NCBI GenBank assembly: GCA_013791935.1
Contig: VMSV01000196.1
Span: 1,745-65,744 of the forward strand
Origin: Desulfobacteraceae bacterium
GTDB taxonomy: Bacteria; Desulfobacterota; Desulfobacteria; Desulfobacterales; UBA5616
DNA length: 64,000 nt
Direction: 5' to 3'
Position numbers and translations under genes: made by a program. Below, piece after piece: positions 6,647 to 35,091 of this stretch. Under the pieces are notes generated by a model that was not told the DNA's origin, searched no databases, and was given only the letters and a program-made list of their open reading frames with translations. Within the stretch, counting starts at the first letter, position 1. Each line of letters opens with the position of its first letter.

Positions 6647-6651
6647 CTATA

Positions 6652-11051: not shown

Positions 11052-11090
11052 TGGGATATCCTTTCTTGGTTTAAAGAGAATCAGGTATTC

Positions 11091-11632: not shown

Positions 11633-11686
11633 GGAGAGGAATGGTCCTGTGGTCTTTTGGTTAAAGGTTCCGACCGTTTTTTAAAT

Positions 11687-11881
11687 GGTCACCGTTTAGG
11701 TGACAATCCGGTGACTATCCAGGTGAGGGTCGACCATCAGCAAACCCGTTTCGGTTCTATCTTTGGTGACTATGGTGACTATTTTTCTAGCAAATATTAA
11801 ATATTAAAAAATAAAATATTAATAATAATAAAGTTATGTAAAAAAGCGTGTAAAAGTCACCTAAGGTCACCAAAGGTCACC
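11687..11881. repeat. Iteron replication origin of the satellite
   Basis: GGTGAC at 11699, 11710, 11765, 11774 and inverted GTCACC at 11688, 11856, 11866, 11876 (10-bp phasing) around an almost pure A/T core (about 11781-11845), immediately 3' of the helicase gene. Confidence 0.85.
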
Positions 11882-11885
11882 GGAA

Positions 11886-13559
11886 TCAGATTTCAAGTTT
11901 AAGCCCAATTCCATAATATCGATAAACACCCGAGACCCTTCTTTTCTCAAAGCGCTTGGTCATCATGGACCCAAAGGCCTTCATTTTTGGCACCCGTTTT
12001 GAAATGTTCAGTTCAAACCATTCCTCGAAGGCCTCGTATAATTCTTTTGCCCCGGCGGTCGCATCCGGGTTGATGATGCAGCAGTCATCCAGAAAATCAG
12101 CCAGCATGTCAGAATCCCTTTTGAATTCTGCGGTTGCTTCCACAACTTTAAGAGGCGGGCAAAGGCCTTGCTTTTGATACAGATGGCACCCCCGGATCAG
12201 CCAAGCCAGTATTTCGGGTGCCTCATCCTTCATTTTCTCAAACAAATGCTTATCAGCCCGCCGCTCATTGTCTGCCTGGGGCTCACGATTGACAAAGGAC
12301 ACCTCAAAACGCACTCTTAAGCACCTCTCCCAAAAAGCGAAGTCGTCCGCCGGTGCATTCGGGATATGGTTTGTGGATAGGATAAGGGTGTGGGTCGGTT
12401 CAAATTTGGTGAACATCTTATCGTGGGGAAGGCGTGCGATCACGGTATCGTCACTTGACAACCACTTGACCCTGGCCGGTGAAATCTTTTGATGAGGGTC
12501 CGTTTCCGACGCAATGGCAAGGTTAACCCGGTAAAGCATCATCAGATCCGGTGAAGGCCCGGAGGAATTTTTAAACCGTCCCTGGTCGAGAAGCATCTCG
12601 CTTGGAATGACGGTTGCCATTGGACCCAGGATGAACAGCAATATTTTGATCAGAAGGCTTTTGCCGTTTCTGCCCTGGCCTTCAAAAATGATAAATATGT
12701 GATCCTTGTTTTTTCGAAGAAGGGTCATGCCAAGCAGCCGCTGGAGGAACAAAACCATTTCCGGATCACCGTTCATGGTTTCATACAGAAACTTGAGGAA
12801 TCTCTTTGGGGTACCATACCAATCAGCCAATGGATGAGGGATGCATTGGGATTTCAGATCTTCCGGGAGACCTGGCCGGACAAGGCTTGAAACAAGGTTG
12901 TAAATATTTTTCTCGCAATGGGAAAAGCAAATTTCATTGGGCTCCGTGTCGAACTCTTCATTTAAAACGCCAAGGCCATTATAAGTGGTATGGGCGAAAA
13001 ACACACACTCGTTCCGGCCTTTGTTTGTCCGGAGCCATCTCGCCAGTTTCAGGCACCCCTTCATGGTTTTTTTCAGCCTGAATATTTTCGGGCTTTCCGG
13101 ATCAAGTTCTTTGATCTCCTTGTCAATGTCAAAGGCCTCTTCCAAGAGCCATTCCACGATGCCCTCAATAGCTGCCAGATACTGCCCTTTTTGATCAATT
13201 TGCCAGTTCGGCCCTTTGTCGTAGAACTCCCATTGACTGGTGGTTTTGTTGTGCAAAAAACATTTTCTATATCTGAACTTATAGAGTTCTGAGACGCCAA
13301 CAGCCCCGGTATCGTAGTACCCGGTATCCCGGATTAAGGCCTTTGCGCTTTCCCTTGATGGCTGGATACTTGTGGACCCAGATCCACCGTCATCCAGATC
13401 CGGTCCGGATTCTTCGGAAACCCTTAGCTTGACCACATCGGCGATCTGCCTATCGGTTTGCTGTAGAATAAAAGAATCAAGGCATGATACCGGGAAGCCC
13501 GGATCTTCGTCCGCCTCACCGTGTCCTGAGACCCTATATTCAATATTATCATCAGGCAT
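11886..13559 (-). CDS. P4/D5-family primase-associated SF3 helicase (D5_N + helicase + C-terminal wHTH)
   Basis: Walker A GQGRNGKS, Walker B IASE, STNHIP, AFWERC, LYEAFEEW, YYGIGLK. Confidence 0.9.
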   Translation of the reverse strand: MPDDNIEYRVSGHGEADEDPGFPVSCLDSFILQQTDRQIADVVKLRVSEESGPDLDDGGSGSTSIQPSRESAKALIRDTGYYDTGAVGVSELYKFRYRKCFLHNKTTSQWEFYDKGPNWQIDQKGQYLAAIEGIVEWLLEEAFDIDKEIKELDPESPKIFRLKKTMKGCLKLARWLRTNKGRNECVFFAHTTYNGLGVLNEEFDTEPNEICFSHCEKNIYNLVSSLVRPGLPEDLKSQCIPHPLADWYGTPKRFLKFLYETMNGDPEMVLFLQRLLGMTLLRKNKDHIFIIFEGQGRNGKSLLIKILLFILGPMATVIPSEMLLDQGRFKNSSGPSPDLMMLYRVNLAIASETDPHQKISPARVKWLSSDDTVIARLPHDKMFTKFEPTHTLILSTNHIPNAPADDFAFWERCLRVRFEVSFVNREPQADNERRADKHLFEKMKDEAPEILAWLIRGCHLYQKQGLCPPLKVVEATAEFKRDSDMLADFLDDCCIINPDATAGAKELYEAFEEWFELNISKRVPKMKAFGSMMTKRFEKRRVSGVYRYYGIGLKLEI

Positions 13560-13574
13560 ATGCAGGAGAGCCTT

Positions 13575-13964
13575 TTACCGGTTTACGAGGAGTTGTTCGG
13601 CTATCTTTTCCCGCCAGCGTCTCACGGTGGATGCATTGGCTTTGATCGCTTTGGCGATTTCTACATCCTTCCACCCGAGTTTAAAAAGAAGGCAGCACAA
13701 AAAAATGGCGGAAAAAGGGACCTTGTTATGTGAAAAAATAGTGTCGGTGATGGCAAAAAACTTTTCCTTGCAGACCATGCAGAAGCATTGCTGGTTTGAC
13801 CAGAACCTTTCCGGCAGCTGGCCATATTCAGCGCCACAATGTGGGCAGGCCGGAGACTTATGGATCTTCCTGATAAAATAATCCTCGCACCGCTCTTCAT
13901 TGAAAAGATTTGGCGAAATGTCATTGAATACATCATTTATGAAGTCTATTCCCATGAACATCAA
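13575..13964 (-). CDS. Zn-ribbon + HTH small protein
   Basis: CPHCG...CMVC and C-terminal HTH EIAKAIKANASTVRRW. Confidence 0.75.
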   Translation of the reverse strand: MMFMGIDFINDVFNDISPNLFNEERCEDYFIRKIHKSPACPHCGAEYGQLPERFWSNQQCFCMVCKEKFFAITDTIFSHNKVPFSAIFLCCLLFKLGWKDVEIAKAIKANASTVRRWREKIAEQLLVNR

Positions 13965-14032
13965 ATTCCTTTCATTGATTGTGATTTAACTCCCAGTTCA
14001 TTTTCCATTCCATTTCTAAATTTCAAATGTAA

Positions 14033-14085
14033 CCGAAACCCGCGCCTCTGTGACCCGTATAGAAAAAAAGTTCCGGGAAGGACCC
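14033..14085 (-). other. Lambda-type cohesive-end packaging site (cosQ + cosN-like)
   Basis: Minus strand GGGTCCT-TCCCGGAACTTTTTTTCTATACG-GGTCACAGAGG-CGCGGGTTTCGG versus lambda GGGTCCT-TTCCGGTGATCCGACAGGTTACG-GGGCGGCGACCT-CGCGGGTTTTCG. Confidence 0.75.
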
Positions 14086-14367
14086 GCAGGCCTCGGGCAT
14101 TGCCTGAGCCCGTTTGACCTTTGGCCTGTTTGGTTTTGGTGGGTGGTCCGGAGGGAGATAAAACCGGCTTTTTTTGACCAGAAAATCGATAAATAAGAAA
14201 TAAATATAGTCTGTAAAAAGTATAAAATAAAAAGATGGATAGAGATAATTTTAAATGAGTAGAGAGAGTGTTTCATTTTTCGATTCCGCTTCGGACCAAT
14301 ATATTCCGCAAATTGCCTAAATTTATCCGGATAGAAAGAAGGGTGGAATTATATTATTTGTGATTAT

Positions 14368-14613
14368 TCAACATTTGGTTCTTGAATTTAACCATCCAAC
14401 AAGATGGGTTCTCAAGACCGCTGGGGATCGCCCCACATGAAAAATCTTAGAGGCGATCGCTTCATCACGGGTTTTGCCAGTAACCATATTTCGAAAGCCA
14501 CCACGTGAATAAGGAAACCCAGGCAGTCTATCTTTATCAGCTTCTTTAAGTAAAATAGGATTAGGCCAACCATTTTCCTCTGCGATACCTTCCCAAAGTT
14601 TATTGTCTTCCAT
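14368..14613 (-). CDS. AlpA/excisionase-like small wHTH protein
   Basis: 81 aa; YSRGGFRN...IFHVGRSPAVLRTHLVGWL pattern; position typical of alpA in satellites. Confidence 0.65.
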   Translation of the reverse strand: MEDNKLWEGIAEENGWPNPILLKEADKDRLPGFPYSRGGFRNMVTGKTRDEAIASKIFHVGRSPAVLRTHLVGWLNSRTKC

Positions 14614-14688
14614 TTTTAATACCCTTTCTTAAAAAAAAATTATATTTAACTGTACGATCTGACGCAAAAATACATTGTGCATCAATAA

Positions 14689-14791
14689 TTGCAATACGTG
14701 CAAATGGCTTATTTTTGCAAACCCAAGAGTTGCAAATTAATAGGTTTGCAATCCAAAGGATTGCAAATTTGGATAGTTGGTTCTTATGCAG
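14689..14791. promoter_or_regulatory. Array of TTGCAA palindromes, putative operator of alpA-like operon
   Basis: TTGCAA at 14689, 14715, 14730, 14746, 14761 plus variants at 14698 and 14786; 15-16 bp periodicity. Confidence 0.6.
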
Positions 14792-14852
14792 AAAAATAAG
14801 GGGCGGATTAAATCAATTCACTTTAGGTGACAAAAGAATGATCATTTGAAGA

Positions 14853-15761
14853 CTAAAGCAAACCTTCTTCTTGAAGGTCTCTTCTTATAGTTGCGGTGGT
14901 TACTATCATTTCACTAACCATTTTTTTTAAGCTATTTATTTCTTCTGTTGTAGCGGCACTCTGAAGCAATTTCATTAATGCATCAATTTCTTTCTTTTTA
15001 ATCCCAGGTTTCAACAAAGCCGACTCAACTATCCTATATTTCAAAACTGCACCAATAAGTCGATCTCTAACCATTGCAGATTTATTTAAACGCACATCCT
15101 CGAACTGTTTCTCATGAAATGCGCTTGCCACTAATGTCTTTCTTTCACGTTTACGAGTCGAAATTATTTTTATGCCTTTTTTACTTTTGTCGGAATTCGG
15201 ACCTTTTATCGAGCCCGAAAGTATGGTTTCGCTTAAGGCTTTATGAATAATTCTTTCTGTTGGTAAACTCAGTAGGAATAACGAGGTAAAGTTTATTTTG
15301 TCCAAATTACTTTCAAGCCATACATAGAAAAATATTAAGACTTCCAAATGAACAAAAAACAGATCTTCGTCATCAGGTGGGAAGTAATATGGGCTAAGCA
15401 TATCTTCAAAAAAATCTGTTATCAAATAATAATCAGGTTCGTGAAAAAAATCATACTTAAAATTGCTTACTTTAATAAGGCTTTGGTCTTTTTCGGGAAA
15501 TCTAGGTCTTATGCCAAAATCCTTTTTCCCCCTAAGCTCTTTATATAACTTATCAAGTGTCTCGTGATAATATTTATTTTCACTTTTAGACGCAACAAGA
15601 GCCTTACGGGATATATGGTACCGAAAGGCCAACTTTCTGAGGAAAAAAGATTGTTGAGAAATTACTTGAAAAATTAATATGTTATCTATTCGATTCTCCG
15701 ACGCTATCAATTGACTGATAAAGTATTTGTCTAATTTATCATTTTCTGTTTTCTCATTCAT
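14853..15761 (-). CDS. Hypothetical protein with C-terminal HTH (putative element regulator)
   Basis: 302 aa; C-terminal VTTATIRRDL resembles a DeoR-type recognition helix; sits between int and alpA-like gene. Confidence 0.65.
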   Translation of the reverse strand: MNEKTENDKLDKYFISQLIASENRIDNILIFQVISQQSFFLRKLAFRYHISRKALVASKSENKYYHETLDKLYKELRGKKDFGIRPRFPEKDQSLIKVSNFKYDFFHEPDYYLITDFFEDMLSPYYFPPDDEDLFFVHLEVLIFFYVWLESNLDKINFTSLFLLSLPTERIIHKALSETILSGSIKGPNSDKSKKGIKIISTRKRERKTLVASAFHEKQFEDVRLNKSAMVRDRLIGAVLKYRIVESALLKPGIKKKEIDALMKLLQSAATTEEINSLKKMVSEMIVTTATIRRDLQEEGLL

Positions 15762-15849
15762 GCCTTCTGCAATTCCTTCTTAGATGACCCGGCAATGCTT
15801 GCAAGGGTAGTAAACTCTTCGATTCATCAACCTATGCCGGGTCAGATAA

Positions 15850-17097
15850 TCATGCCTTTTCAGTCCTTTTCAAATCATAAAATTCCGAAATCTTTTGTTG
15901 ACTTTTTTCCAGCCGTTTAACAGCAGCTTTAAAGGTGTCCGGCTGCAAATGCGCATAACGCCGGACCATCGCAAAAGAACTATGACCCATCAATCCTTGC
16001 AATATATATAGATCGGTGCCAGCCGCCGCATGCCAACTTGCAAACGAATGCCGGCAACTGTAAAAAACCAGTTTATGCCTTCTGTCAGTGATTCCGTCAT
16101 TAAAACCTTTTTGATCAACCACCTCCTGGAACAGACGCGGTGTTTCAAGATATGGCCTTTTCCCGGATCTCATGAAAATCAATGTATCTGGCTTGGCGTC
16201 TTGGGACTTTGAATGACGATCGACCAGAACTTGCTTTAAATCATCGGTCATGAATGCATGTCTGTTTTTGGAGTTCTTGGTATCCAGAATTTGAATTTGT
16301 TCGTTTCCAAAATCTATTACTCCCCAGGTCAATTTTAAAATTTCACTGGATCTCAGACCGCACCGGAAAGCCAACAAAACCATTGTATATGTGTCCAGGT
16401 CTTTGGTTTTTAATTCAGATAGGAGATTGTCGGCTTCATCCCGAGAAAAAAAGCTTAACCGACTGTTATCCGCTTCCGGAGGCTTAACCTGGGAAACAGG
16501 ATTCTTCCCATAAAAAATGTCATTGCGAATCGCATAATTAAAAACCTGCCGTGCAACAGCAAGAGCATATTTAATGGTACGGGGAGTAAGATGCAAGTCA
16601 CCCATGTTTTTTTTGATCATTTCAAAATGAAAAGGTGCTATTTTCCCGATCGGAAGGTTTCCGATCACGGGCGCTAAATATCTCTCAAAGAGTGGGACCT
16701 CGCGTTTCCATCCTTTTCGGGTTCTTTTGGTGGCTTTGTTAATTTCTAAATATTTACCCCACACATCGGAAAATTTAATGTTTTTTCGCTCTATTTCTTC
16801 GTCAGCCTTTTTTTGGGCCTTCTCATCTTTATTTTGCTTAAGTCTTTTAGCCTTTAAAGTAGTCGGTCCTGTACCATGGGTTTTGTTCTCTTTGAGCTCG
16901 TGAACTTTGCTTATGGCTTTTTCAAGGGTCATACCATCAAAGAGCCAGCCAAATCCTTCCTCAAGCCTCGTCTCACCAACAGTGTGGCGATATTGGTAAA
17001 ATACATCGCGCTGGGTTTTTATCCCCTTTTTTCGGGTTCTGGTAGGGTGGTAGCGGAACCTTAATCCCTTAACTGATGTTTGGTGCCATGTGAACAT
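15850..17097 (-). CDS. Tyrosine recombinase/integrase
   Basis: Catalytic GLRSSE, K (TKNSK), YSCRHSFAS, LMGHS, RRYAH; N-terminal arm-binding domain. Confidence 0.95.
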   Translation of the reverse strand: MFTWHQTSVKGLRFRYHPTRTRKKGIKTQRDVFYQYRHTVGETRLEEGFGWLFDGMTLEKAISKVHELKENKTHGTGPTTLKAKRLKQNKDEKAQKKADEEIERKNIKFSDVWGKYLEINKATKRTRKGWKREVPLFERYLAPVIGNLPIGKIAPFHFEMIKKNMGDLHLTPRTIKYALAVARQVFNYAIRNDIFYGKNPVSQVKPPEADNSRLSFFSRDEADNLLSELKTKDLDTYTMVLLAFRCGLRSSEILKLTWGVIDFGNEQIQILDTKNSKNRHAFMTDDLKQVLVDRHSKSQDAKPDTLIFMRSGKRPYLETPRLFQEVVDQKGFNDGITDRRHKLVFYSCRHSFASWHAAAGTDLYILQGLMGHSSFAMVRRYAHLQPDTFKAAVKRLEKSQQKISEFYDLKRTEKA

Positions 17098-22782: not shown

Positions 22783-23766
22783 GTGTTTCCAGTGATAAAA
22801 AAATGCCCCCTTTGTGGCAAAACAAAAGGCAAGCGAGGATGCCGACTGCATGACATGAAATTGATATGCCCGCGATGTTGTGCCGGTATTCGAAACGCGG
22901 AATGCGATCCCTGTTCACATCATCACTCTGCTGAGAATTACCAGGCTGATAAATATCAAAAGTCGGGTGGCCGAGGGTTTGTGATTGAGTTGGATGAAAC
23001 GATCGAGAAACAGGTGGACAAGGCGTTGGGAGAAATTGAAAGGGAACGTTTTACCGAAGCCCGGGAAATATTATCGCCCCTTTTTCAGTCGCATCCGCAC
23101 AACCATTATATTCACTACGGTATGGGCGTTTTTTTTGCCTTTAAGGGCGAAAATCAGAAAGCGATCGTGCATTTTCAAAAGGCCGTTGAAATATTCCCCT
23201 ATTTTGTGGAAGCGCATTATAATTTGGGCATTGCCTACAAGGAAGAGGTGAACATTGCCGGAATGGGGAGGGCTTTTCGAAAGGTGGTCAGATTGGGGGA
23301 ACCGGATGATTCCGTTTGCCACGAAGCAAAAAAAATGCTGGCGGTACTGGAGAAGTCGGTCAGAGAAGTGAATGGAACGGATCTGGACACCTTTATCAGG
23401 GCACAGGATTTTTTTGAAAAAGGAATGTCGTTGATGGAAAAAGGTGAATGGATGAGGGCCATCGATGCGTATAAGGAAAGCCTGACCCTCAATGCCAGTA
23501 CCCCGCAGGCATATGGCAACATGGGGCTTTGTTACGCAAGGTTGGGAAAGAAAGAGGCCGCCATGGAAGCCTTTGATAAAGCCTTGGCCATCGATCCTGA
23601 TTACGAAGTCGCCATTGCCAATAAATTGGTCGCCGAAAAACTGGCGCCCGGGGAGGCGTTGGAAACACCGATACAAATCGTTGAGTACTATAAAGATTAT
23701 AAAAAAGAAGGACGATCGTATCTTGAAGAGCGGGCGCAAGAATTAAAAAACCAACCTGAAATTTGA
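22783..23766 (+). CDS. TPR-repeat protein with Cys-rich N-terminal domain
   Basis: CPLC...C...CPRCC...C..C; TPRs AHYNLGIAY, AYGNMGLCY. Confidence 0.85.
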   Translation: MFPVIKKCPLCGKTKGKRGCRLHDMKLICPRCCAGIRNAECDPCSHHHSAENYQADKYQKSGGRGFVIELDETIEKQVDKALGEIERERFTEAREILSPLFQSHPHNHYIHYGMGVFFAFKGENQKAIVHFQKAVEIFPYFVEAHYNLGIAYKEEVNIAGMGRAFRKVVRLGEPDDSVCHEAKKMLAVLEKSVREVNGTDLDTFIRAQDFFEKGMSLMEKGEWMRAIDAYKESLTLNASTPQAYGNMGLCYARLGKKEAAMEAFDKALAIDPDYEVAIANKLVAEKLAPGEALETPIQIVEYYKDYKKEGRSYLEERAQELKNQPEI

Positions 23767-25046
23767 CGCTCAAATTTAACGAAAAGGCATCCTCCGTGTC
23801 CATCACCACTTTCCAAGGATTTTTAGCCACAGCAAACCTGCACCAAGGGCTGCTGGTGGACCTGTGCGCCGAGCCGGGGGTGATCAGCCGTGCCAAGCTG
23901 CTCACCTATATGGAGCGGCACGGGATTTCGCCCGCAGATAAGGACCGACTCATCGAGCGCTACTGTCGAACGTCCATTCTATATGAAGAGGCGGATTTCG
24001 AATACAGCGTTAATCCGGTGGTGGTCGGCCTGGTCAATTTTTATGAGCGACGGGGACGGCTGACCCATGCGGGATTTCTGAGGGATCAGATCTTCGAGAT
24101 CGGAAAACTCACTGACACCCTGCAACAGCTGCTTTTTGCTGAATTACCGGAAATGGATGGGATCATCGATACGGTGGACAAAATCTATCTGGTGGTTCGG
24201 GAAGTGCGGGAAAGTGGCTACCAGCACTACCAGGCCTGTATGCGCGCTTTCGGGGACATGAAGCGAAATAGTGGGGAACGGCCCATCGATGTGAGAATCG
24301 AGGAGCTAAAAACCGTGCACCGGCGGTATATCGAACCGCTCAGGGAACTCATCGACCCCAACGCAGAGCCGGTCCGGAAGATGGCATTACTTCGCCGCCG
24401 CATGGCCGATCTCGGGGTCGATGCCGGACTTCTTTCCGAATCCGTTGAACTCGATATCCGGCGGGCCCGGCTTGCCATCGATATCCAGTACATCGACCAT
24501 GTCCTGATCCGGCATTTTGAAACCCTGATCGATACCAGCCGGGCGCTACTGAACTCACTTTTAGAGGAAAAAAGCATTAAGGATGCGCTGGCCGCCTGTC
24601 TCGGCGACCTCGGCGGAATCTGGGAAAACCTGACAGCAGATACCATCGTACTCACCGGTTTTCAGGCCAGCCAGACGGCAGGCATGGACAGACAGGGGGC
24701 TTTTTTCAATGACGTGATCCACGGAAAATTCATCCCTCGACCTCGGCCTCTTTCCATCACACTGCCAAAAGAGGAACGGGCCGACCACCTACTTCTTTTC
24801 GATGATCTTCTTCTTTCGCGGATGGAGAAGGATCGTCGCATTGACAGCTGGCCGGGGTTTGTGATTCGGGAATATGTCGCCTACCCCCCTGATGAGCGGC
24901 TAAAAGCCATTGCCTTGCCGCTAATCATGGCGAATCCCCCGTTTGTCGTTCGGATGAGCGAGCAGACGTTTTCAGGGGATTTGAAGGAGTATACAGTGGA
25001 GTTGACCGATTTCGATATTGTCTGGGAGGGTGACAATGGGCGATGA
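23763..25046 (+). CDS. jetA: Kleisin-like subunit of Wadjet/MksBEFG (JetA/MksF-type)
   Basis: First of four coupled genes; helical 427 aa, YIEPLRELID motif; called mainly by position. Confidence 0.7.
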   Translation: MTLKFNEKASSVSITTFQGFLATANLHQGLLVDLCAEPGVISRAKLLTYMERHGISPADKDRLIERYCRTSILYEEADFEYSVNPVVVGLVNFYERRGRLTHAGFLRDQIFEIGKLTDTLQQLLFAELPEMDGIIDTVDKIYLVVREVRESGYQHYQACMRAFGDMKRNSGERPIDVRIEELKTVHRRYIEPLRELIDPNAEPVRKMALLRRRMADLGVDAGLLSESVELDIRRARLAIDIQYIDHVLIRHFETLIDTSRALLNSLLEEKSIKDALAACLGDLGGIWENLTADTIVLTGFQASQTAGMDRQGAFFNDVIHGKFIPRPRPLSITLPKEERADHLLLFDDLLLSRMEKDRRIDSWPGFVIREYVAYPPDERLKAIALPLIMANPPFVVRMSEQTFSGDLKEYTVELTDFDIVWEGDNGR

Positions 25047-25620
25047 CACGCCGGAAGAGACCGCCAGAATCATTCAGATCCTGCTGCGGGGCTACCAGTT
25101 CAGCGATGCCGATCTGTTCAAACCCGGCTATGACCGCTGGTACAATATCCTGGACCGTCATTTCGACTGGTTCCGGGAGCATCTGAGTTTAAGCGGATTT
25201 TCGCTACGCCGGGACCATTCAGTGATTTTCCTTGAAAAGGAAAACAAGCTCCTGAGCCAGGAGGAAAAGCAGATTGTGGTCGTGCTTTTTCTACTGACCG
25301 ATCTGTGGTTGGAAAAGGGGAAGAGTTTCGGTGATCTGTTCCAGCTCAGCGTTTCCTGGACGGAGCTGGACTGGTTCCGGGACGGCTATGGCCGCGAGTA
25401 TCTGGGCCAGGTGGGCATTGAAATGGGTGACGACGGTGAAATGGAACAGCTTTTCAGACGGCTTTCAAATAAAGGGTTTTTAGAATACAGCACAGCGTCG
25501 CGGACCCTGACCCTTCGAAGACCTGCAGAACGGTTGATCAATATGGCCCGTCGGTTGCACCGGCAGATCCAGGCCGCAGGGGTCGATGCCCGGAAGGAGG
25601 AAGCCCGGAACCATGAGTGA
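25036..25620 (+). CDS. jetB: KITE subunit of Wadjet/Mks (JetB/MksE-type)
   Basis: About 195 aa between kleisin and SMC genes; LLRG...LSGFSL...RLSNKGF tandem wHTH pattern. Confidence 0.75.
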   Translation: MGDDTPEETARIIQILLRGYQFSDADLFKPGYDRWYNILDRHFDWFREHLSLSGFSLRRDHSVIFLEKENKLLSQEEKQIVVVLFLLTDLWLEKGKSFGDLFQLSVSWTELDWFRDGYGREYLGQVGIEMGDDGEMEQLFRRLSNKGFLEYSTASRTLTLRRPAERLINMARRLHRQIQAAGVDARKEEARNHE

Positions 25621-28348
25621 TTATACCGCAAGCATCCGCCGGATCGGCCTCATCAACAGCGGCATGTTCGATACCCTGTCTCTCAATTTCGACGTCAAAG
25701 CCATTCACCTGGTCGGGGCCAACAACGTTGGGAAAACGAGTCTGATCGCCGTGATTCAGTTCCTGTTTTTCCCGAATTTCAACGAAATGACCTTCATCAA
25801 ATCATCCGGTGAGTCCATGGGGTTTTATTTCCGGCCCGAGGGCTCCTACATTTTGTTTGAAGTGCGCACCATCACCGGAAGCATCCGGACAGTCGGTATT
25901 TACGGCACCGGCGAGTCGGACGGCCGGGTCAATTTCGTGTTCAATGGCGGGTTTGATCTTAATGAATTTTTGAGCGAAGAGAGCACGCCAAAGCCGCTTC
26001 AGGAGCTTCAAGCCGTATTTTTCAGCCGGAACTTCCATCGGTTCGACCGGTTCGAGCGTTATGAGGAGGCGCTTCTGGGCCTTCACACCCACGGCGAATA
26101 CAATGTACCCATGTTCGATCTTTCCAAGACCAATTTCAGGCTGCTTCGAAAGCTCATGCAGGGCCTGCTTCGGCTCGATCGCATCGATGCGGCGGAGGTC
26201 CAGGATCTTCTGGTACGGATTGTGGAGAGGGGGGCGGTGAAAACCCGTTTCAACATGCTCCAGGATTTCGAGCAGAAGTACCGTCATATCAATCAGGTCC
26301 GGATTGAGCTTCGGGAACTGGAGGCACTGAAGCCAGTGGTGGCCCGGTACCAGAAGATACGCGCCCGCATAGGCGAGACAGAGGAAAAGAGAAGATCTCA
26401 TTCCGAGCGGCTGTTTCATCTCTCTTCGGTTTACATGGCCAGGCTTGAAAAAGAAAAAGAGACCCTTGCCCGGGAATTCAAAACCCAGGAAACGCAGCAT
26501 GAAACCCTCGGCGAACAGATCAAGGCCCGGATGAAGCGCATCGGTGATGCGGAGTCCGCCTTAGCTTCGGTCAAAGAAGCAAAGGAGCGATTGGAGGCCT
26601 TGACGGAAATCTGCAGGCAGCATTCGGAATCTCTCATCCGTCGGGAGCGGGACGAACGAGCTCATGCCAAGGTGGTGCTTGAAAACGCCCTGTCCACCGC
26701 CAGGCCCCAAAACATTCCGGACCTCAAACGTCAGCTGATGTCGATCCGCCGGGAACTTGCGGGGGCAAGAAGGCGGATGGAAGCCAAAACCCTGCAACAG
26801 GTCTGGGTGGATGCCGGTTTCGATGAGATGCACCGGGCTCTTCTTTCATTTCTGGTGTCCAATGATCTGTCCAGCCTTTCGGCCTCCGATTGTATGCAGA
26901 ACCGGCAGGCGTTTGTCGATGCCTCGTTGCAAGCGGCGGACTATCTGGATGCAGAGGGCAACTTCAAGGGGTTTGGCCTGAACGTTCCACGGTCGCTCTG
27001 GTTTGTTCCAGAAATGGAACAAGAACCACTTATGGCCCAGTGTGACCGGCTTGAAGAGAATATGGCGAAAATTCATGGCGAGATCGATATCGCAGAAAAT
27101 CAGGAAAAGAAACGACAGGAACTCTCGTCCCTGACAGCGGAGATTCAAGCCAGGGACACCCTGCTTGGCCGGTTTACCGAACTTGCCAACCTCAGCGAAA
27201 GATGGGAAAGCCCGGAAAATATCGAAACCAAACACGCTCAACAGGCCGATGAATTAAAACAGCTCGGTGATGCCGTTGATACCATGGAGGCGGAGGCCCG
27301 GTCCTTACGCCAGACCCAACACCGGACCCACAGCGCTCTTGAAGCGGCAGAAGCGCGGTGGCGGCAAGTCTGCCGGGAGCATGAATCGCTAACGGCGTTT
27401 ACGTCCGTTCTACCGGAAATATTGGATGCGCTTACCCTGGAAGCATTACGGGATGAATACACCCTGGTCCGCGGGAATCTCTCCGAGATCGTGAAATCAC
27501 TGGATAGGTACCAGATGGAGCTTGACGAACCGAGGGTAGAGCTGGAAGCCCGGTATGAAAAGTCAGGGGCGGATGTCGGCTTCGAAAAATGGCTGGTGCT
27601 AAAAACGAACCTTGCGGGAGAAATTACGGGGCTGGAAGCGCAGCTGACGCGGGAGTACGAGGGGATTTTTACCGTGGTCCGGGCAAAACTCTCCAAAATC
27701 ACCCAGGCCTATGAGAGCGTGGAGGCCGAGGTGGCGGCGCTCAACAAGGGTATTCGAAACGTTCGGATTTCCAATATCGAACAGATCGGAATCGCCCTGG
27801 AAAAAACCAGCCTGCTGGATGCCATCGACCTGAGCGTTCCCGGCCAGTTGGATCTGTTTGCCACCCGGTCCGGCGGTGGTTCCCTGGAGGAAGCCCACGC
27901 TCAAGTGGAGGACTATTTCAACCATATCAAGCAGTACGGCAACGAAATCAATCTGAAGGACATGTTCCGGATCAAGTTTTCCGTAAAGTTCAACCATCAG
28001 GCTCAGCCGGTGGAGCGATACGAGATACATCGGTTCGAGTCCAACGGTACAGAGACGGGGGTGAAAATCGTAATTTATCTCGGACTGATCGGACTTCTTC
28101 AGGAGCGAAAAAATGTTGTCGCAACCAGAATCCCGTTTTTCCTGGACGAGGTCGGCAGCATCGATTCGGAGAACTTGAATCAACTCATAGCCTACTGCAG
28201 CCTCAACAACTTCCTACCGATTTTCGCCAGTCCGGAAATTCGCAAGGATATTTCTTGCAACTATCTTTTCAGACGAAACGGAAGCCGAAGCTTATTGGCG
28301 TCCGTGGTTAAAATCTCTGAAAGGAAACCTTCGGCAGGTAGCACATGA
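25613..28348 (+). CDS. jetC: SMC-like ATPase (JetC/MksB-type)
   Basis: Walker A GANNVGKT, long coiled coils, signature ESNGT, Walker B FFLDEVG. Confidence 0.9.
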   Translation: MSDYTASIRRIGLINSGMFDTLSLNFDVKAIHLVGANNVGKTSLIAVIQFLFFPNFNEMTFIKSSGESMGFYFRPEGSYILFEVRTITGSIRTVGIYGTGESDGRVNFVFNGGFDLNEFLSEESTPKPLQELQAVFFSRNFHRFDRFERYEEALLGLHTHGEYNVPMFDLSKTNFRLLRKLMQGLLRLDRIDAAEVQDLLVRIVERGAVKTRFNMLQDFEQKYRHINQVRIELRELEALKPVVARYQKIRARIGETEEKRRSHSERLFHLSSVYMARLEKEKETLAREFKTQETQHETLGEQIKARMKRIGDAESALASVKEAKERLEALTEICRQHSESLIRRERDERAHAKVVLENALSTARPQNIPDLKRQLMSIRRELAGARRRMEAKTLQQVWVDAGFDEMHRALLSFLVSNDLSSLSASDCMQNRQAFVDASLQAADYLDAEGNFKGFGLNVPRSLWFVPEMEQEPLMAQCDRLEENMAKIHGEIDIAENQEKKRQELSSLTAEIQARDTLLGRFTELANLSERWESPENIETKHAQQADELKQLGDAVDTMEAEARSLRQTQHRTHSALEAAEARWRQVCREHESLTAFTSVLPEILDALTLEALRDEYTLVRGNLSEIVKSLDRYQMELDEPRVELEARYEKSGADVGFEKWLVLKTNLAGEITGLEAQLTREYEGIFTVVRAKLSKITQAYESVEAEVAALNKGIRNVRISNIEQIGIALEKTSLLDAIDLSVPGQLDLFATRSGGGSLEEAHAQVEDYFNHIKQYGNEINLKDMFRIKFSVKFNHQAQPVERYEIHRFESNGTETGVKIVIYLGLIGLLQERKNVVATRIPFFLDEVGSIDSENLNQLIAYCSLNNFLPIFASPEIRKDISCNYLFRRNGSRSLLASVVKISERKPSAGST

Positions 28349-29172
28349 ATCTTCCGTCCTGGCTCACCACACTGGTGAATAGGGGGGTGGTGGCACACTC
28401 GGCCGCGAACCCGAAAATACTGGCCGAATTGATTACCCTGGGAATCGTGGCCATCAAAACAGCCGGCATCCGCCGAACAGTCGTTGAAGCCAAACCGGAA
28501 CAGCTCCGCATATGGCTTGATGCCCGGTATCCGGATCACGGCAGGATCCCGAATGCGGCCCGTATCCGGGAGGGGAACATTCTACGCAGCGGCGGCAGCA
28601 AAGCCGGAAGCAGCGCCCACGGGGTGCTCTCGTTTCAGTTCAAGTGGTTCGGCAAGGAGGATGATTTATGGACACAAATGACCAGAACGTATGGGGTGGC
28701 GGCGGTTCTGACCGACCGGTTGGCGGTTCTCACGCTGTCGGCCAGGTGGCGCCTTTTAACCATTGAAAACTGGGAGCCTTTTTTCCGGGCGGATTATTCC
28801 GGAGCACCGGTTCCGGTCATGGTGGCCTACCTGGGCGGGAATGCACCCGGGAGCGTGATGGATGCGCTGAAAACATTTCCAACCCCGCCTGTATCGGTTC
28901 TTCATTTCGGAGATTACGATTGGGAGGGGCTGTATATCTTTCAGCGCCTGCAGAAGGTTCTGCCACAGGCCAGGCTTTATATCCCGGACAATATCGAGAC
29001 ACTTTTCAAACAGTTCGGCAAGCTGAATTTGATCGAAAATCAGAGGCGTAAAGCCTTGTTTGATGAAAATAACATGGAATGCCTTCCAGTGATAAAACTC
29101 ATCGAGCAGCACAACGCCGGTCTGGAGCAGGAAATCGTCGGATTGCCGGGGACGGCACATATCTCATCCTAA
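28345..29172 (+). CDS. jetD: Toprim nuclease (JetD/MksG, topo VI-A-like)
   Basis: LTIEN, HFGDYDWEGLYI, GLEQE; ATGA overlap with SMC gene. Confidence 0.85.
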   Translation: MNLPSWLTTLVNRGVVAHSAANPKILAELITLGIVAIKTAGIRRTVVEAKPEQLRIWLDARYPDHGRIPNAARIREGNILRSGGSKAGSSAHGVLSFQFKWFGKEDDLWTQMTRTYGVAAVLTDRLAVLTLSARWRLLTIENWEPFFRADYSGAPVPVMVAYLGGNAPGSVMDALKTFPTPPVSVLHFGDYDWEGLYIFQRLQKVLPQARLYIPDNIETLFKQFGKLNLIENQRRKALFDENNMECLPVIKLIEQHNAGLEQEIVGLPGTAHISS

Positions 29173-30969: not shown

Positions 30970-31743
30970 TCATTTTTGATTGTGATACAACCAGCCATCC
31001 TGCTCAGCTTTTCTTCGATATTTAAATCCATTCTTCAATAGCTTTAGACTTAGTGCTTGGTAAAACCTATTCCTTAAGGAGTTGTTTTTATTTGGGGGTA
31101 ATGTGCTCTTGTGAACGAGACTTTCGACCTCAGGAGTCATCTGAAGTTCGCCAGAAAACTGATGGACAATATCAGCAAAGGCAATGGCTTCTTGGTCCAA
31201 GTCATGAAAAATTCCAACTCTTTTGTTATTATCAAAGTAATCTAAATTTCCGCCTGGCACTTCCCCGAACATAGTAAATCCAGTCAAAAATAGTTTTTCC
31301 AATGGAAAAAGCCTTAATATAGTATACAAAGCGTATGTCCCCGTCGTGAACCATCTCGTCCTAATACCTGATGTAATGCCAAAAATATCAGGCGCCAAAG
31401 AAATCACGTAAGGAATATCACCAATCCATTCTTTTAATTTACCAAGGTCAAGATCTCTTTTGGGTTGTACAAAGACAACAATACATTTTGGCTGCAATGC
31501 TTCTGATGGAAGGGGGGACCTTTCAATACAGTTAATGTCATTTGAAAATAACACATCGGTTTTACTGCCTATATTTTCTTCAAATCCTTTTGTGTAGGCT
31601 CTATTAAAGCGAACCACCATATCGTGGGAGTCAATTGTCCGACCGTTATTCCAAGAGGTGATCGAGGAAGAATTTCCGACAAAGGCAGCAGAACGAACAT
31701 GCGAAAACATGTCACGAAAATCAAAAATATCTATTTTCTCCAT
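30970..31743 (-). CDS. GT29 sialyltransferase-like glycosyltransferase
   Basis: Sialylmotif L (VGNS...IDSHDMVVRFN...GSKT), S (TTG...TGF), III (Y) and VS (HDLDQE). Confidence 0.85.
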   Translation of the reverse strand: MEKIDIFDFRDMFSHVRSAAFVGNSSSITSWNNGRTIDSHDMVVRFNRAYTKGFEENIGSKTDVLFSNDINCIERSPLPSEALQPKCIVVFVQPKRDLDLGKLKEWIGDIPYVISLAPDIFGITSGIRTRWFTTGTYALYTILRLFPLEKLFLTGFTMFGEVPGGNLDYFDNNKRVGIFHDLDQEAIAFADIVHQFSGELQMTPEVESLVHKSTLPPNKNNSLRNRFYQALSLKLLKNGFKYRRKAEQDGWLYHNQK

Positions 31744-31818
31744 TATTAGCTTTCATCTTTTAAAAACAGTTCTTGTCTGCAAATGTGGTTTTAAGTGACT
31801 GCTCTTTTGTTGTCCCCT

Positions 31819-32517
31819 CTAACAACTGACTGTTATGGGTCTGAGTTCGGGGAGACCGTCCATGATTGCATATTTCAAAATAAAGTCAAAACGATCGACA
31901 TCTGTACAAAAATCAAAATCCGCCTCCGATGCCCAGTGGATATCAGAATCAAAAAATTTTTTGGCATCCGGTGAAATACGGAGTCTTGCCCTGATTTCGA
32001 CCCGACTCATGCGCTCTCCGTTGAGCGCCCGGCATATATATTCGGCACACAGTGTATCCTCATCTGAAGGGCGTATATCTCTGTGGCCCATACACATCAG
32101 AGAAACACTATCCGGGTTCTGTTTCTGGATATAGCGGACAATTGCCCCTGCATTGCAGAAACTACCACTAACAAGCTCTGATGCTCCGACTGCTGCCTGA
32201 AAACCCTGCGTACCGGCACTGGTCGTGAAAACAACCGTTCTGCCCTTAAGGTCCAGTTCTATCGCCTTTGAAGGTGAATTGCCAAAATCCGCTTCAGGTA
32301 GTTTTTCTCCAGCCCGCTCTCCTGCAAAAAAGAAATCGGGATTGTGTTGTTTTAGATCATACGCTTTTCCTGCATCTGCCAATGGAATCAATCTTTTTGC
32401 ACCTCTCTCAATAAAGCAGCAAGCTGTTGTGAAAGCTCGAAACACATCAATAATCACCGTCAAACCCTCAGCCTTCACTCCCTCCCGGCTCTGCTGCAAG
32501 ATGCGAATATCAAACAT
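31819..32517 (-). CDS. comB: 2-phosphosulfolactate phosphatase family
   Basis: VIIDVFRAFTT, AGER.G, DFGNSP, TTSAGT, EDTLCA. Confidence 0.9.
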   Translation of the reverse strand: MFDIRILQQSREGVKAEGLTVIIDVFRAFTTACCFIERGAKRLIPLADAGKAYDLKQHNPDFFFAGERAGEKLPEADFGNSPSKAIELDLKGRTVVFTTSAGTQGFQAAVGASELVSGSFCNAGAIVRYIQKQNPDSVSLMCMGHRDIRPSDEDTLCAEYICRALNGERMSRVEIRARLRISPDAKKFFDSDIHWASEADFDFCTDVDRFDFILKYAIMDGLPELRPITVSC

Positions 32518-33415
32518 GCGTTGTCTGCCTCAGCTCTGGGGCATAACGGCTGATGGTCTCTAGAACACAAACCATTTGCCTGACACGTTCCTCGATCTCA
32601 TTCTGACTCGGGAGATGATTCTGATGACCTTGTGAAACTGCACCACATTTGAGATATACCGGAGCACATAGACGGATAATCTCCGGAATTTGTGGTGTAC
32701 GAATCATGCCACCTGCATCAGCAGCAGTATCCGAGAAGATATCCAGTGTGCAGGACACCGCTTGTCTAACAGCCGACAGCATCGGTAACTCCAGATCTGG
32801 AACCAGATTAATGCTGTCCGCCCCCACCTCTGAAAACAGGGCCGCCGCAGCCGGATTAGCACAACCGCTATGCACTGAAAGTTTGAGCCGGATGTCCCCG
32901 GGAAGCTCACCCTTATTTCTCAGTTTGCTGATCACTGAAAGCAGTCCTTCATCATAAACTAGAAAATCCCTAACCCCGAGTTCCACCCCCTTGATCACAT
33001 CATCCAGAGCGTACATAACGTTATCCATGCCCCTGAGCCGGTAACCCACCCGAACACCGTTCTTGGCTCTTACGAAGCCACCCGTGTCATAAACCGCACG
33101 GGGGCCAATGGAGAACACCGGTGCAATGTTCCGCTCGCGACAAAGCACTACCATTTCAGAAATTTCTTTTTCCGGGAGTCGGAAAATTCCGCGGCACTCA
33201 TCTACTCGATTAACGCGTACCCCTGCGGCATCCGTCAAAGTCAACACAGTTTCAAGTATCTTTAAATTATTGATACTTGAAAGCTCTATACCAAAAGCGC
33301 CCCCGTCCGGAAAGCTAAGTTGTGAAGATGGCAACCCGTAATTATCTCGACCTGGCAGAGATATCGTTTCCAACAATTCATGTGATCGCAGCATGCTCCA
33401 ATTCCTTCCATCCAA
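32510..33415 (-). CDS. U32-peptidase-like TIM-barrel protein of unknown function (start may be 33394)
   Basis: SFPDGG...GPRA.YD.G...RLRG...DEGLL...KLSVH...GADSIN...PVYLKCG, resembles divergent U32-annotated family. Confidence 0.65.
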   Translation of the reverse strand: MDGRNWSMLRSHELLETISLPGRDNYGLPSSQLSFPDGGAFGIELSSINNLKILETVLTLTDAAGVRVNRVDECRGIFRLPEKEISEMVVLCRERNIAPVFSIGPRAVYDTGGFVRAKNGVRVGYRLRGMDNVMYALDDVIKGVELGVRDFLVYDEGLLSVISKLRNKGELPGDIRLKLSVHSGCANPAAAALFSEVGADSINLVPDLELPMLSAVRQAVSCTLDIFSDTAADAGGMIRTPQIPEIIRLCAPVYLKCGAVSQGHQNHLPSQNEIEERVRQMVCVLETISRYAPELRQTTHV

Positions 33416-34109
33416 TTTTCTTGAGAAGATACTCGGTCATACAGATGTCCTCAAGGGAGTGCACATCCCCGCCAGAAACATTCTCAATATACAGAATCTT
33501 GTTCCCAAGGTAGGAAAACGGTGGTTGTCCGTTGGGCGGGAAACAATGGTTGTAACGTATTACCCTTACTGCGCCGTCCAAAACAAAACAGGGCTCCAGA
33601 TTTTGCCTGTTGGTAGATGTGTTTTCTGGCATCTCCAGCCAAGTGGATAGTGTGCCGTTGGATGTGATTTTCTTGGTCCGGTACGGGTGGATGGAATGAT
33701 CAATATAGCCGCTCACACAAGAATCTGCTTCTGGCGCACCAGCGAGTTTCTCTATCGCTTCATCGACTATGCCCTGCCTGTGCACTCCGCAATTGCAGTG
33801 CATGGTGATCAAAAAATTAATCTCGCAACCGATACTCTCAACCGCATGATTAATCGCATCAACAAGTTCTGAGCTGTCCTGAGCCAGAGCATGAGGGCGG
33901 TCAATAATACATACACCCATTTCTCGGGCTACACGTTTTATATCCTCACAATCCGTGGAAACATAAACATCATCAATAAGCGTCGCCTCTTTTGCAGCAT
34001 GCATGGCGTAGTAGACAAGAGGCCGCCCCAAGACCGGATAAACATTCTTGCCTTTCACAGATTTGCTTCCACCTCTTCCGGTAAGCAACACAATATTTTT
34101 TCCACTCAT
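33378..34109 (-). CDS. Acylneuraminate cytidylyltransferase (NeuA/KdsB-like)
   Basis: GRGGSKSVKGKN, VSTD, IDRP..LAQD, RQNL, DVHSLED. Confidence 0.9.
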   Translation of the reverse strand: MSGKNIVLLTGRGGSKSVKGKNVYPVLGRPLVYYAMHAAKEATLIDDVYVSTDCEDIKRVAREMGVCIIDRPHALAQDSSELVDAINHAVESIGCEINFLITMHCNCGVHRQGIVDEAIEKLAGAPEADSCVSGYIDHSIHPYRTKKITSNGTLSTWLEMPENTSTNRQNLEPCFVLDGAVRVIRYNHCFPPNGQPPFSYLGNKILYIENVSGGDVHSLEDICMTEYLLKKIGWKELEHAAIT

Positions 34110-34722
34110 ATTTAATCACTCCATTCTTATTACAGCGAGGTAATGCGGCTCTAATCATCGCATGGTCAGCACCCTTATCCTTGGTCCATATATGCCGGCC
34201 TGGCTTAATGACGCGGACCTTTAAAAAGCAGTCCGTGATGTGTTCAGCCAGGCAGCTCGGGAGTGATTTTCAAACATGCTGATGCCAGCTGTCTTCCAGC
34301 CTGTGAACAGCTTTCTCTCTTCGCACAGCGCTTGTTCTACTTGTCTCCGTTATTGCTTTTACAAGTCATCTCAAAAATAATATCATCACCCCATGGCGGG
34401 GTTGTGACCCTTTTCCAAAGACTCAGGATGGTTTTTTTATGATTACCTGATTCTTTAGGAAAATCCAACCTATTTTAGTGGCCATCCTGAATGGGGAGAA
34501 AAGCGAGAGCCTCTATGATTTAACTCTGCGCTGAACTTTCTTCACCCAATCCAATATCCCAACTTCGCTTTGCCTGGCACGTGTCCATAAAATAATTTAA
34601 AAATAATTGATTTGTTGAGGAAAAATGGTGTAAAAACAGAATCAACTCACTTCAAAATCGACCTGTCAAGAAGTAGTCATAAAGGACGCTCAACAACCGA
34701 TTGTTCTTAAGGACGCCTCAAT

Positions 34723-35091
34723 ATGAATAAAAACGAATTGAAAAAACAATATGCCCAAACCGTCCAACCCATGGGGGTTTACCAGGTCATCAACAAGGCC
34801 AATGGAAAAGTGTTCATAGACAGCAGCCTGGGTATTCAAGGGAAAATGAACCGGTGCAAGTTCCAGCTTGCCCATGGGTCCCATATGAACAAGACCCTCC
34901 AGAAGGATTTTAATCTGAGCGGCCTGGAAAATTTTTCATTTGAGGTATTGGACCTTCTGGAACCTGAAAAAGATTTGAAAACGGATTACAGAGAGGATCT
35001 GAAAATGCTTGAAGCCATGTGGATTGAGAAAATCCAGCCCTTTGATGAAAAAGGATACAATGACCGAAAACAAATGAAGCTGAAACCATGA
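34723..35091 (+). CDS. Small GIY-YIG-like family protein
   Basis: MGVYQVIN...KVFI.SS...H.N..LQ.DFN...F.FEVL. Confidence 0.75.
   Translation: MNKNELKKQYAQTVQPMGVYQVINKANGKVFIDSSLGIQGKMNRCKFQLAHGSHMNKTLQKDFNLSGLENFSFEVLDLLEPEKDLKTDYREDLKMLEAMWIEKIQPFDEKGYNDRKQMKLKP

Follow-up and report, generated by a model that had tools for sequence, protein, structure and literature searches.

A four-gene operon that resembles a CMP-ulosonate pathway with a U32-like barrel and a ComB-family phosphatase, preceded by a T-box-like leader

How is an acidic sugar made, activated and transferred by an operon that encodes a cytidylyltransferase and a sialyltransferase-like enzyme, with neither a NeuB- or KdsA-type synthase nor a HAD phosphatase among its products? 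The question is raised by four genes of a Desulfobacteraceae bacterium (assembly GCA_013791935.1), located on a stretch of 64,000 nucleotides of contig VMSV01000196.1 that was analysed as a whole and is referred to here as the window. A preliminary description, made from the letters of the window alone, had named the four products as a cytidylyltransferase, a U32-like barrel, a ComB phosphatase and a GT29 enzyme, and these identities are borne out by Pfam, the match of the barrel to U32 being sub-threshold. Taken together, the genes look like a variant of the pathways that activate ulosonic acids with cytidine monophosphate (CMP), with two enzymes for which such a role has not been seen before.

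The four open reading frames (ORFs) are tightly packed on the minus strand of the window, from 34109 down to 30970. The first, g1 (33378..34109, minus strand, 243 aa), encodes a CMP-ulosonate-synthetase-type cytidylyltransferase of a divergent branch (PF02348), followed by g2 (32510..33394, minus strand, 294 aa from ATG), an uncharacterised TIM barrel of a distant U32/CutC-like family, g3 (31819..32517, minus strand, 232 aa), a phosphatase of the ComB or 2-phosphosulfolactate phosphatase family (PF04029), and g4 (30970..31743, minus strand, 257 aa), a GT29-like transferase of the sialyltransferase family (PF00777). The listed start of g2 is a TTG at 33415 (301 aa); its homologues begin at the ATG at 33394. 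Counted from this ATG, g1 and g2 share 17 nt, g2 and g3 share 8 nt (ATGTTTGA), and 75 nt lie between the end of g3 and g4, in agreement with the earlier picture of three overlapping genes followed by a GT29 gene. From the two overlaps, g1–g3 are translationally coupled. The reported lack of NeuB, KdsA and HAD proteins in the cluster was likewise reproduced, as none of the products of g1–g4 matched such a family in Pfam or NCBIfam and none was seen adjoining the cluster. The closest HAD-type gene lies about 23 kb away, within a mobile island.

The product of g1 scores 49.3 bits against Pfam CTP_transf_3 (PF02348), above the cut-off of 22.6, and falls under every PseF, KdsB and NeuA equivalog cut-off in NCBIfam. 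The nearest of these models is PseF (TIGR03584, 79.7 bits, cut-off 205.7), and the best KdsB-type model gives 35.5 bits against a cut-off of 234. The closest solved relative is the CMP-N-acetylneuraminic acid (CMP-Neu5Ac) synthetase 6ifd (E 3.8e-18, residues 1-230), while other NeuA and KdsB structures align more weakly. In an alignment of 24 sequences of the g1 family, the motif for cytidine triphosphate (CTP), GRGGSKSxxxKN, is invariant and the NRQ motif is kept. Residues 103-110, conversely, read MHCNCxxH in the family and LLQPTSPL in 6ifd, and further Cys and His residues are invariant. This segment and the additional Cys and His residues may bind a metal or reshape the sugar pocket. The replacement of the QPTSP segment agrees with a substrate different from those known. 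On these grounds g1 is assigned as a CMP-acid synthetase on a branch of its own.

At the other end of the operon, g4 scores 57.2 bits against Pfam Glyco_transf_29 (PF00777, cut-off 23) over residues 15-92, which represent the region of sialylmotif L. Via the same motif, a profile of 29 g4 homologues matches the solved ST3Gal-I, ST8Sia-III, ST6Gal-I and ST6GalNAc-II with E-values of 5e-9 to 3e-6. A second HMMER stretch of this profile against solved sialyltransferases reached -3.6 bits. An S-like segment (TGTYALYTxL...LFLTGFTMFG), a III-like KYYE/DYFD and a VS-like HDLDQE are conserved in the 29 sequences; this is a pattern reading with no significant score. Of the claim that all sialylmotifs are present, motif L is hence the scored part, and the S-, III- and VS-like motifs are recognisable by pattern. 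The protein has no N-terminal extension and carries a basic C-terminal tail, and the family is cytoplasmic in look. It is also rare: a search of 5.8 billion clusters gave 62 at E ≤ 0.001, and among 400 sampled other genomes of the phylum there was a single match, weak and partial. A search for GT29-like proteins on plasmids gave no match. Petit et al. (2018, PMC5811610) describe 23 bacterial GT29 sequences, 19 of them alpha-proteobacterial and all biochemically untested, and state that eukaryotic sialyltransferases are thought to derive from the bacterial GT29 family. Like g4, those proteins are GT29 members with sialylmotif L; unlike them, the g4 family appears as a separate and rare set of 62 clusters, linked to what would be a private donor pathway. 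Studies of plants (PMC11288761, PMC3522684) name GT29-like candidates for the transfer of 3-deoxy-D-manno-octulosonic acid (Kdo) or 3-deoxy-D-lyxo-heptulosaric acid (Dha) to rhamnogalacturonan-II, and these cases suggest that GT29 donors need not be sialic acids.

The phosphatase g3 is a clear member of the ComB family by Pfam (2-ph_phosp, PF04029, 153.8 bits, cut-off 26.4), and the solved ComB 1vr0 aligns with it at E 3.7e-18 with the IDVxRA, GER, DFxNSP and TTxxGT motifs matched. It scores below all ComB equivalog cut-offs of NCBIfam, the best value being 119.6 against 235, and a search of the genome (98% complete) detected no ComA (PF02679). By both measures, g3 differs from a true 2-phosphosulfolactate phosphatase.

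The barrel g2 is the least familiar of the four proteins. Its score against Pfam Peptidase_U32 (PF01136) is 16.7 bits (E 0.0045), below the cut-off of 22.4, and its 633 homologues at E ≤ 0.001 are nearly all unnamed, with a few called "U32 family peptidase". An AlphaFold2 (AF2) model with a pLDDT of 88.8 predicts an eight-stranded TIM barrel. The top Foldseek matches of this model are ALAD, the class II aldolases YdjI, fructose-bisphosphate aldolase (FBA) and tagatose-bisphosphate aldolase, the U32 protein Mk0906 and transcarboxylase 5S, all at TM values of about 0.5. A VIA search places CutC (Z 15.4) and U32 Mk0906 (Z 15.3) barely over many barrels at Z 12-14, of which the DAHPS 1zco (Z 12.9) is one. 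ComA, NeuB and HpaI-type aldolases are absent from the 50 best matches in each of the two fold searches, which excludes nothing. A profile search of the Protein Data Bank (PDB) with the barrel family gave one chance-level match (E 0.65) and no solved relative, and the Pfam scan gave no match of g2 to the ComA family PF02679. The residues invariant across the family are E37, R63, E66, R72, R99, D103, R115, Y118, R119, R121, Y147, D148, K171, S173, H175, N180, N196, D200, D218, D222, R232 and K249, and in the AF2 model the invariant residues, acidic side chains, Lys and Arg among them, are placed at or just past the ends of the barrel strands. The best name for g2 is a distant member of the U32-like superfamily. 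Its nearest folds are those of this superfamily (Mk0906; the hydroxylases UbiU/UbiV, RlhA and TrhP) and of CutC, and its neighbours in the Atlas carry the name "U32 family peptidase"; it differs from the superfamily in its sub-threshold Pfam score and in its cysteines. UbiU and UbiV bind their cluster through four Cys ligands. In g2, C67, C178 and C250 are conserved in the subgroup of the window; at these positions the distant subgroup has Thr, most commonly His, and Thr, respectively. Identification of g2 as an Fe–S hydroxylase akin to UbiU/V was rejected, as the subgroup cysteines are not kept family-wide, and an Fe–S site common to the whole barrel family is unlikely.

From these assignments, a four-step scheme can be drawn in which a 2-keto acid sugar, the product of barrel and ComB-type phosphatase, is coupled to CMP by g1 and handed on by g4. 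It is our leading interpretation, and as a whole it falls just short of what we would call probable. In the first step we infer that g2, as a metal-dependent TIM-barrel lyase, would join pyruvate or phosphoenolpyruvate (PEP) to an aldehyde or sugar that bears a phosphate, so that a phosphorylated 2-keto-3-deoxy acid results. The phosphate, at a position deduced from the scheme, would then be taken off by g3. In the third step g1 would couple the free acid, whose identity is presumptive, to CMP from CTP as NeuA, PseF and KdsB do, and finally g4 would pass the acid from CMP to a postulated acceptor. A sequence of the same four steps, in which a phosphorylated 2-keto-3-deoxy acid is formed by condensation, freed of its phosphate, activated with CMP and transferred, is common to the routes to Kdo (KdsA-KdsC-KdsB-WaaA), Kdn (Kdn-9-P synthase, phosphatase, CMP-Kdn synthetase) and animal Neu5Ac (NANS-NANP-CMAS), whose activating enzymes belong to the same cytidylyltransferase family as g1. 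The operon departs from these routes in its first two enzymes, as the synthase candidate is not a homologue of NeuB, KdsA or DAHPS and the phosphatase is of the ComB rather than the HAD type. If true, the proposal would provide the first function for a family of barrels of which hundreds are unnamed and for bacterial ComB homologues without ComA, a route to CMP-activated acidic sugars that is invisible to searches based on NeuB or KdsA, and a testable donor for a bacterial GT29. The pathway logic of the operon is plausible, and it is partly backed by conserved linkage.

This linkage was followed from the barrel outwards. Within the same order, three of 60 relatives carry a barrel homologue, all only 33-34% identical. 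A scan of one genome per species returned 177 relatives, of which the loci of the best 80 were examined: 12 loci (L005-L016) with a barrel at least 50% identical, and another 68 at 39-44%. ComB is present in the locus of 10 of the 12, the exceptions being L011 and L016. When the window proteins were compared with the 80 loci by tblastn, a g1 homologue was found in one (L015). In a separate metagenome scan, g2 alone returned nothing, and an alignment query returned a single contig of 1450 bp (L085) on which homologues of g1 (69%), the barrel (62%) and ComB (60%) follow each other in the same order as in the window.

The locus L015 encodes g1 (52%) and ComB on one strand, and the barrel (50%) followed by a 233-aa ORF on the other. 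The family of this ORF is small (8 matches among 1.84 billion representatives) and aligns over 174 columns with the GT29-like family, the motifs in register, at an hhalign probability of 63.5% (E 6.8e-5). Compared directly with g4, by BLASTP or by single-sequence hhalign, the ORF gave no significant match, and the other neighbour in L015 (P0183) shows no likeness to g4. In Foldseek, an AF2 model of the 233-aa ORF (pLDDT 82.7) gives an archaeal HPPK as the first-ranked match and has Pasteurella sialyltransferase (9c08), CstII, ST3Gal-I, ST6Gal-I and ST8Sia-III among the best, with E-values of 3e-3 to 2e-2 and TM values of about 0.45. Judging from profile and model, L015 carries all four functions, with a remote protein of predicted sialyltransferase fold in place of g4.

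Contig sizes provide further, indirect evidence. The g1 family has 79 matches at E ≤ 1e-30, and for ten g1 homologues (60-84% identical) the longest contig is of exactly the same size as the contigs of barrel homologues, i.e. 266340, 5465, 6136, 41369, 5354, 31879, 1949, 7771, 1979 and 10348 bp. The size of 6136 bp is also that of a contig with a g4 homologue (74% identical), which represents the only further GT29-linked case and is recognised by size coincidence. Of the linkage proposed earlier for the U32-like family, the comB part and the neuA part hold, the former in 10 of 12 loci, the latter in L085, L015 and the ten same-size contig pairs. The GT29 part is confined to the one further contig. 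Barrel and ComB are a conserved core, which g1 joins in one clade, and a gene of sialyltransferase fold completes the set of barrel, ComB and g1 in at least three places, GT29 proper being an occasional partner. The four-gene finding is genuine, and chance alone does not account for the genes lying side by side.

The wider genomic contexts of the barrel family bear on the chemistry of g2. The 68 distant loci stem from Anaerolineae, Acidobacteriota, Bacillota and Streptomyces, and often show the order cupin, barrel, creatininase-family gene, ABC transporter. The creatininase-family gene is IolN, a 3-dehydro-scyllo-inosose hydrolase (520 bits, cut-off 245), and is found in at least 33 of the 68 loci, a lower bound since ORF calling loses genes in GC-rich DNA. 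Genes for zinc-dependent alcohol dehydrogenases, GFO/IDH/MocA dehydrogenases, LarA-like, Ldh_2 and GlcD/GlcF-like proteins are common in the distant loci, and some of the IolN loci also encode the alcohol and GFO/IDH-type dehydrogenases. In L018 (6958-7938), L023, L028 and about 30 other loci of Anaerolineae and Acidobacteriota, the barrel gene is situated between a small cupin and IolN in clusters that resemble inositol catabolism. By analogy, the barrel in the IolN clusters may replace a step of the Thermotoga-type inositol pathway. On a megaplasmid of Thermomicrobium roseum, the barrel is the last gene after an IclR regulator, a sugar ABC transporter, an MR/MLE enzyme, an MBL-fold hydrolase and a permease. 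In non-phosphorylative sugar-acid routes, the position after the dehydratase is that of the 2-keto-3-deoxy-acid aldolase, and the barrel of T. roseum at the aldolase position was therefore counted for alpha-keto-acid chemistry of the family. On an Enterobacter plasmid, an APH-type kinase comes before the barrel, and a D-2-hydroxyacid dehydrogenase and an aminotransferase come after it.

Among the closer loci, L012 and L013 combine barrel and ComB with a 588-aa 2-oxo-acid enzyme dependent on thiamine pyrophosphate (TPP). The order in L013 is barrel, ComB, TPP enzyme, cupin, ABM monooxygenase, an L-2-hydroxyglutarate-oxidase-like flavoenzyme and an exporter of the major facilitator superfamily (MFS), whereas in L012 the TPP enzyme precedes ComB and is accompanied by a GH3 amido synthetase, an alpha/beta hydrolase and an MR/MLE enzyme. 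In eight loci of myxobacterial type (L005-L011 and L014), the barrel, usually with ComB, is encoded directly upstream of mur ligase genes, including a MurL-MurD fusion in L005 (5268-11973) and MurE and MurF in L005 and L010, which hints at a link to peptidoglycan precursor synthesis. Three of these eight loci have a 2-hydroxyglutarate-oxidase-like gene near the barrel. In the archaeal-labelled L016, the barrel stands between AsnB-like and RNA-ligase-like genes. As every context of the family involves 2-oxo or 2-hydroxy acids, often sugar-derived, a lyase acting on 4-hydroxy-2-oxo acids offers itself as the common denominator. By such analogy, the contexts point to alpha-keto-acid chemistry of the aldolase kind, in which the barrel would make or split 4-hydroxy-2-oxo acids.

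A second feature of the locus, newly recognised here and no part of the earlier reading, precedes the operon. The region 34079..34362 (minus strand) matches the T-box leader family of Rfam (RF00230) over the full model (1-219) with 47.7 bits, below the gathering score of 93, and ends at the start of g1. The E-value is 2e-8 when 6 kb are searched, 2.9e-9 for 851 nt, and 3.8e-9 for the whole genome, in which the match is unique. In 60 relatives, no T-box was found at E ≤ 1e-4, and in six related loci (L015, L013, L012, L005, L010 and L085) Rfam returned neither a T-box nor another family. Stem I is complete, with the GA/K-turn region, the AGUA/GAA S-turn, the AGAGA bulge and the distal loop, and is followed by a Stem II-like hairpin. 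In our own reading of the alignment, the specifier loop GAAAAUCAC presents AUC (Ile) at 34267-34265, followed by A. In the 3' half of the leader, a helix-bulge-helix arrangement can be drawn (GGGU / 7-nt bulge / AUGCG...CGCAU / ACCU), again by our own reading, with a bulge of GCUGACC where UGGNACC, whose UGGN pairs with the 3' end of the tRNA, is canonical; cmscan instead set the T-box sequence over the g1 start codon.

The Shine–Dalgarno region GGAGUGAUU (34114..34122, minus strand) is a 9-nt perfect complement of AAUCACUCC (34268-34260), a segment that takes in the specifier codon as well as the 3' strand of the lower helix of Stem I, and this pairing is seen in the minimum free energy (MFE) fold. 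When the upstream leader was shuffled 5000 times, 48 of the shuffled sequences had a complement of at least 9 nt to the 23-nt ribosome-binding window. By MFE, the leader does not outperform its shuffles (z -0.61 and +0.64). A scan for promoters and terminators yielded no excess of sites over shuffled sequence, and it placed no terminator downstream of the leader. As no terminator follows and the ribosome-binding site (RBS) can pair with upstream leader segments, control at the level of translation is suggested. Read from its sequence, the predicted leader appears to sense tRNA-Ile and to gate expression of the operon, most likely at the translation level. Like the translational T-boxes of ileS genes (PMC12647780), the leader has a complete Stem I with an AUC specifier, lacks a terminator and has an RBS that could be sequestered. 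Conversely, the leader deviates from T-box riboswitches in its sub-gathering score, in the bulge and in its downstream genes, which are not amino-acid genes. A variant from X9, a sequencing run of another groundwater metagenome, provides a comparison: its contig is about 88% identical over 34240-34360, and two changes in Stem I helices preserve base pairing (G.U to G-C and U.G to U-A), another two turn AAUAAC into GAUGAC, the consensus GA motif, and the specifier is unchanged. Though small in number, these changes form the pattern of a structure under selection. A tRNA-Ile(GAU) gene was not found in the assembly (48 tRNAs). Assignment of the operon to a missing step of the isoleucine pathway was set aside, since the genome encodes citramalate synthase (702.7 bits against 450) and the enzyme types do not fit. 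The leader would be a rare case of tRNA sensing before genes without an amino-acid function, in a lineage with no other T-box found.

Several observations weigh against the four-step pathway and its coupling to the leader. The structural matches of g2 are to generic TIM barrels, with TM of about 0.5 and with Z 15 where the background lies at Z 12-14, and g2 has no sequence relation to NeuB or to KdsA/DAHPS in Pfam, NCBIfam or the PDB profile search. The barrel–ComB pair also occurs without cytidylyltransferase and transferase, both in the myxobacterial-type loci and in L012 and L013, so that the product of the pair is not tied to CMP activation. None of the 80 barrel loci contains a g4 homologue by tblastn, and among the g4 homologues listed there is none from the closest relative's 266-kb contig. 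To our knowledge, ComB has a characterised activity only on 2-phospho-hydroxy acids, in the coenzyme M literature, and not on terminal sugar phosphates. The genome moreover encodes a canonical NeuB (169.8 bits) beside a CTP_transf_3 gene on contig C249 (14645-17211), a DAHP_synth_1-type, KdsA-like gene on contig C246, and five CTP_transf_3 genes in all. Finally, an Ile T-box has no obvious logic before a glycan pathway, and no gap in the isoleucine pathway is evident.

The activity of ComB leads to a first alternative, which we regard as unlikely. Here g2 would be a non-homologous stand-in for phosphosulfolactate synthase and add sulfite or another nucleophile to PEP, ComB would convert the resulting 2-phospho-3-substituted lactate into an alpha-hydroxy acid, and g1 and g4 would activate and attach a small, possibly sulfonated acid. 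ComB usually follows ComA, yet in this genome it follows g2, and the ComA–ComB route of coenzyme M or sulfolactate synthesis likewise has a TIM barrel followed by ComB. The parallel extends to the gene order of L013, with its TPP enzyme and 2-hydroxy-acid oxidase, which resembles ComA-ComB-ComC-ComDE; to L012, with the order barrel ... TPP enzyme, ComB; and to Ldh_2, the ComC family, which is frequent in the distant barrel loci. However, the ComA–ComB route has no CMP or glycosyltransfer step, g2 has no PF02679 match, and g3 lies under the equivalog cut-offs. The only acids that NeuA-type synthetases and GT29 enzymes are known to handle are cyclic 2-keto acids, and judging from the established mechanism a non-anomeric 2-hydroxy acid would have no supporting ring oxygen. 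The position of ComA outside the 50 best matches in both fold searches of g2 is a further, inconclusive point, and sugar keto-acids agree better with the IolN and sugar-acid contexts than PEP adducts do.

Equally doubtful is a division of the operon into two halves with separate roles, in which g1 and g4 would use a nonulosonic acid or Kdo from the canonical NeuB or KdsA, with g2 and g3 merely co-expressed for making or trimming the acceptor or for salvage. The preliminary description had itself named a canonical neuB or kdsA elsewhere as a possible donor source, and such genes do exist, as the NeuB on C249, the KdsA/DAHP-synthase-type gene on C246 and the five CTP_transf_3 genes demonstrate. 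The many barrel–ComB pairs in loci without g1 or g4 agree with separate roles as well. The NeuB locus, however, already has its own adjoining cytidylyltransferase, and the genome probably makes a standard nonulosonic acid as well. Moreover, the g1 family repeatedly shares contigs with the barrel family, g1 overlaps g2, and the QPTSP segment found in 6ifd is replaced in g1.

It is very unlikely that the module decorates or builds a diffusible natural product or antimetabolite, with the Ile T-box reflecting a link to isoleucine or isoleucyl-tRNA synthetase. Natural-product-like sets do accompany the barrel in L012 (GH3 amido synthetase, alpha/beta hydrolase, MR/MLE and TPP enzymes), in L013 (cupin, ABM monooxygenase, MFS exporter), in L016 (AsnB-like amidotransferase) and on the Enterobacter plasmid, where kinase and aminotransferase are joined by an iron redox enzyme, an M14 peptidase, an MFS protein and a nucleotidyltransferase; in the window, no polysaccharide-synthesis or export gene was seen among the annotated ORFs, and the operon is located amid mobile and defence genes. 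Conversely, GT29 enzymes are known only as transferases of glycans and glycoconjugates, the operon has neither an exporter nor a resistance gene, and the T-box argument is purely circumstantial.

Returning to the four-step pathway, a more specific version joins barrel, phosphatase and leader. The barrel would be a ulosonate synthase that keeps the phosphate of PEP on C2, yielding an anomeric 2-phospho-ulosonate, and a new CMP-activated sugar acid would be moved by the GT29-like enzyme; the module would be switched on by tRNA-Ile, with the RBS mimicking the tRNA-Ile anticodon loop and paired with the specifier until the tRNA binds. A C2-phosphate product would explain why a ComB rather than a HAD phosphatase was recruited, since ComB is specialised for 2-phospho-carboxylic acids. 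We give this version only a slight chance. In the literature, nothing was found that joins 2-phosphosulfolactate phosphatase with a cytidylyltransferase, nor anything on 3-dehydro-scyllo-inosose hydrolase.

With regard to its setting, the operon has a G+C content of 0.45-0.49 compared to 0.52-0.55 in the flanks. Just upstream and divergent from it lies a 122-aa ORF (34723-35091, plus strand) that is homing-endonuclease-like (PADLOC HEase, E 2.3e-10). Wadjet/Mks-like genes are found at 23763-29172 (plus strand) and encode an unnamed 427-aa protein, MksE, a 920-aa JetC-like ATPase and a JetD_C protein. An anti-phage defence role of g1–g4 themselves was rejected, as they gave no PADLOC match, though these Wadjet-like genes adjoin. 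Farther off, a low-GC mobile island (0.33-0.42) at 4787-17097 contains two D12-class DNA methyltransferase-like genes, the HAD hydrolase, an S49 peptidase, a D5-type primase and a phage integrase, and group II intron domains are located at 1980-2269 (minus strand; RF02001 125.9 bits, RF01998 53.7 bits). The mobile and defence neighbours, together with the rarity of the barrel subgroup, of GT29 and of T-boxes among relatives, point to a gain of the operon by horizontal acquisition. No RNA run is among the sequencing runs listed with this DNA, two of which may be its source. Among the matches listed, it is present in groundwater metagenomes from 10 runs in 7 studies.

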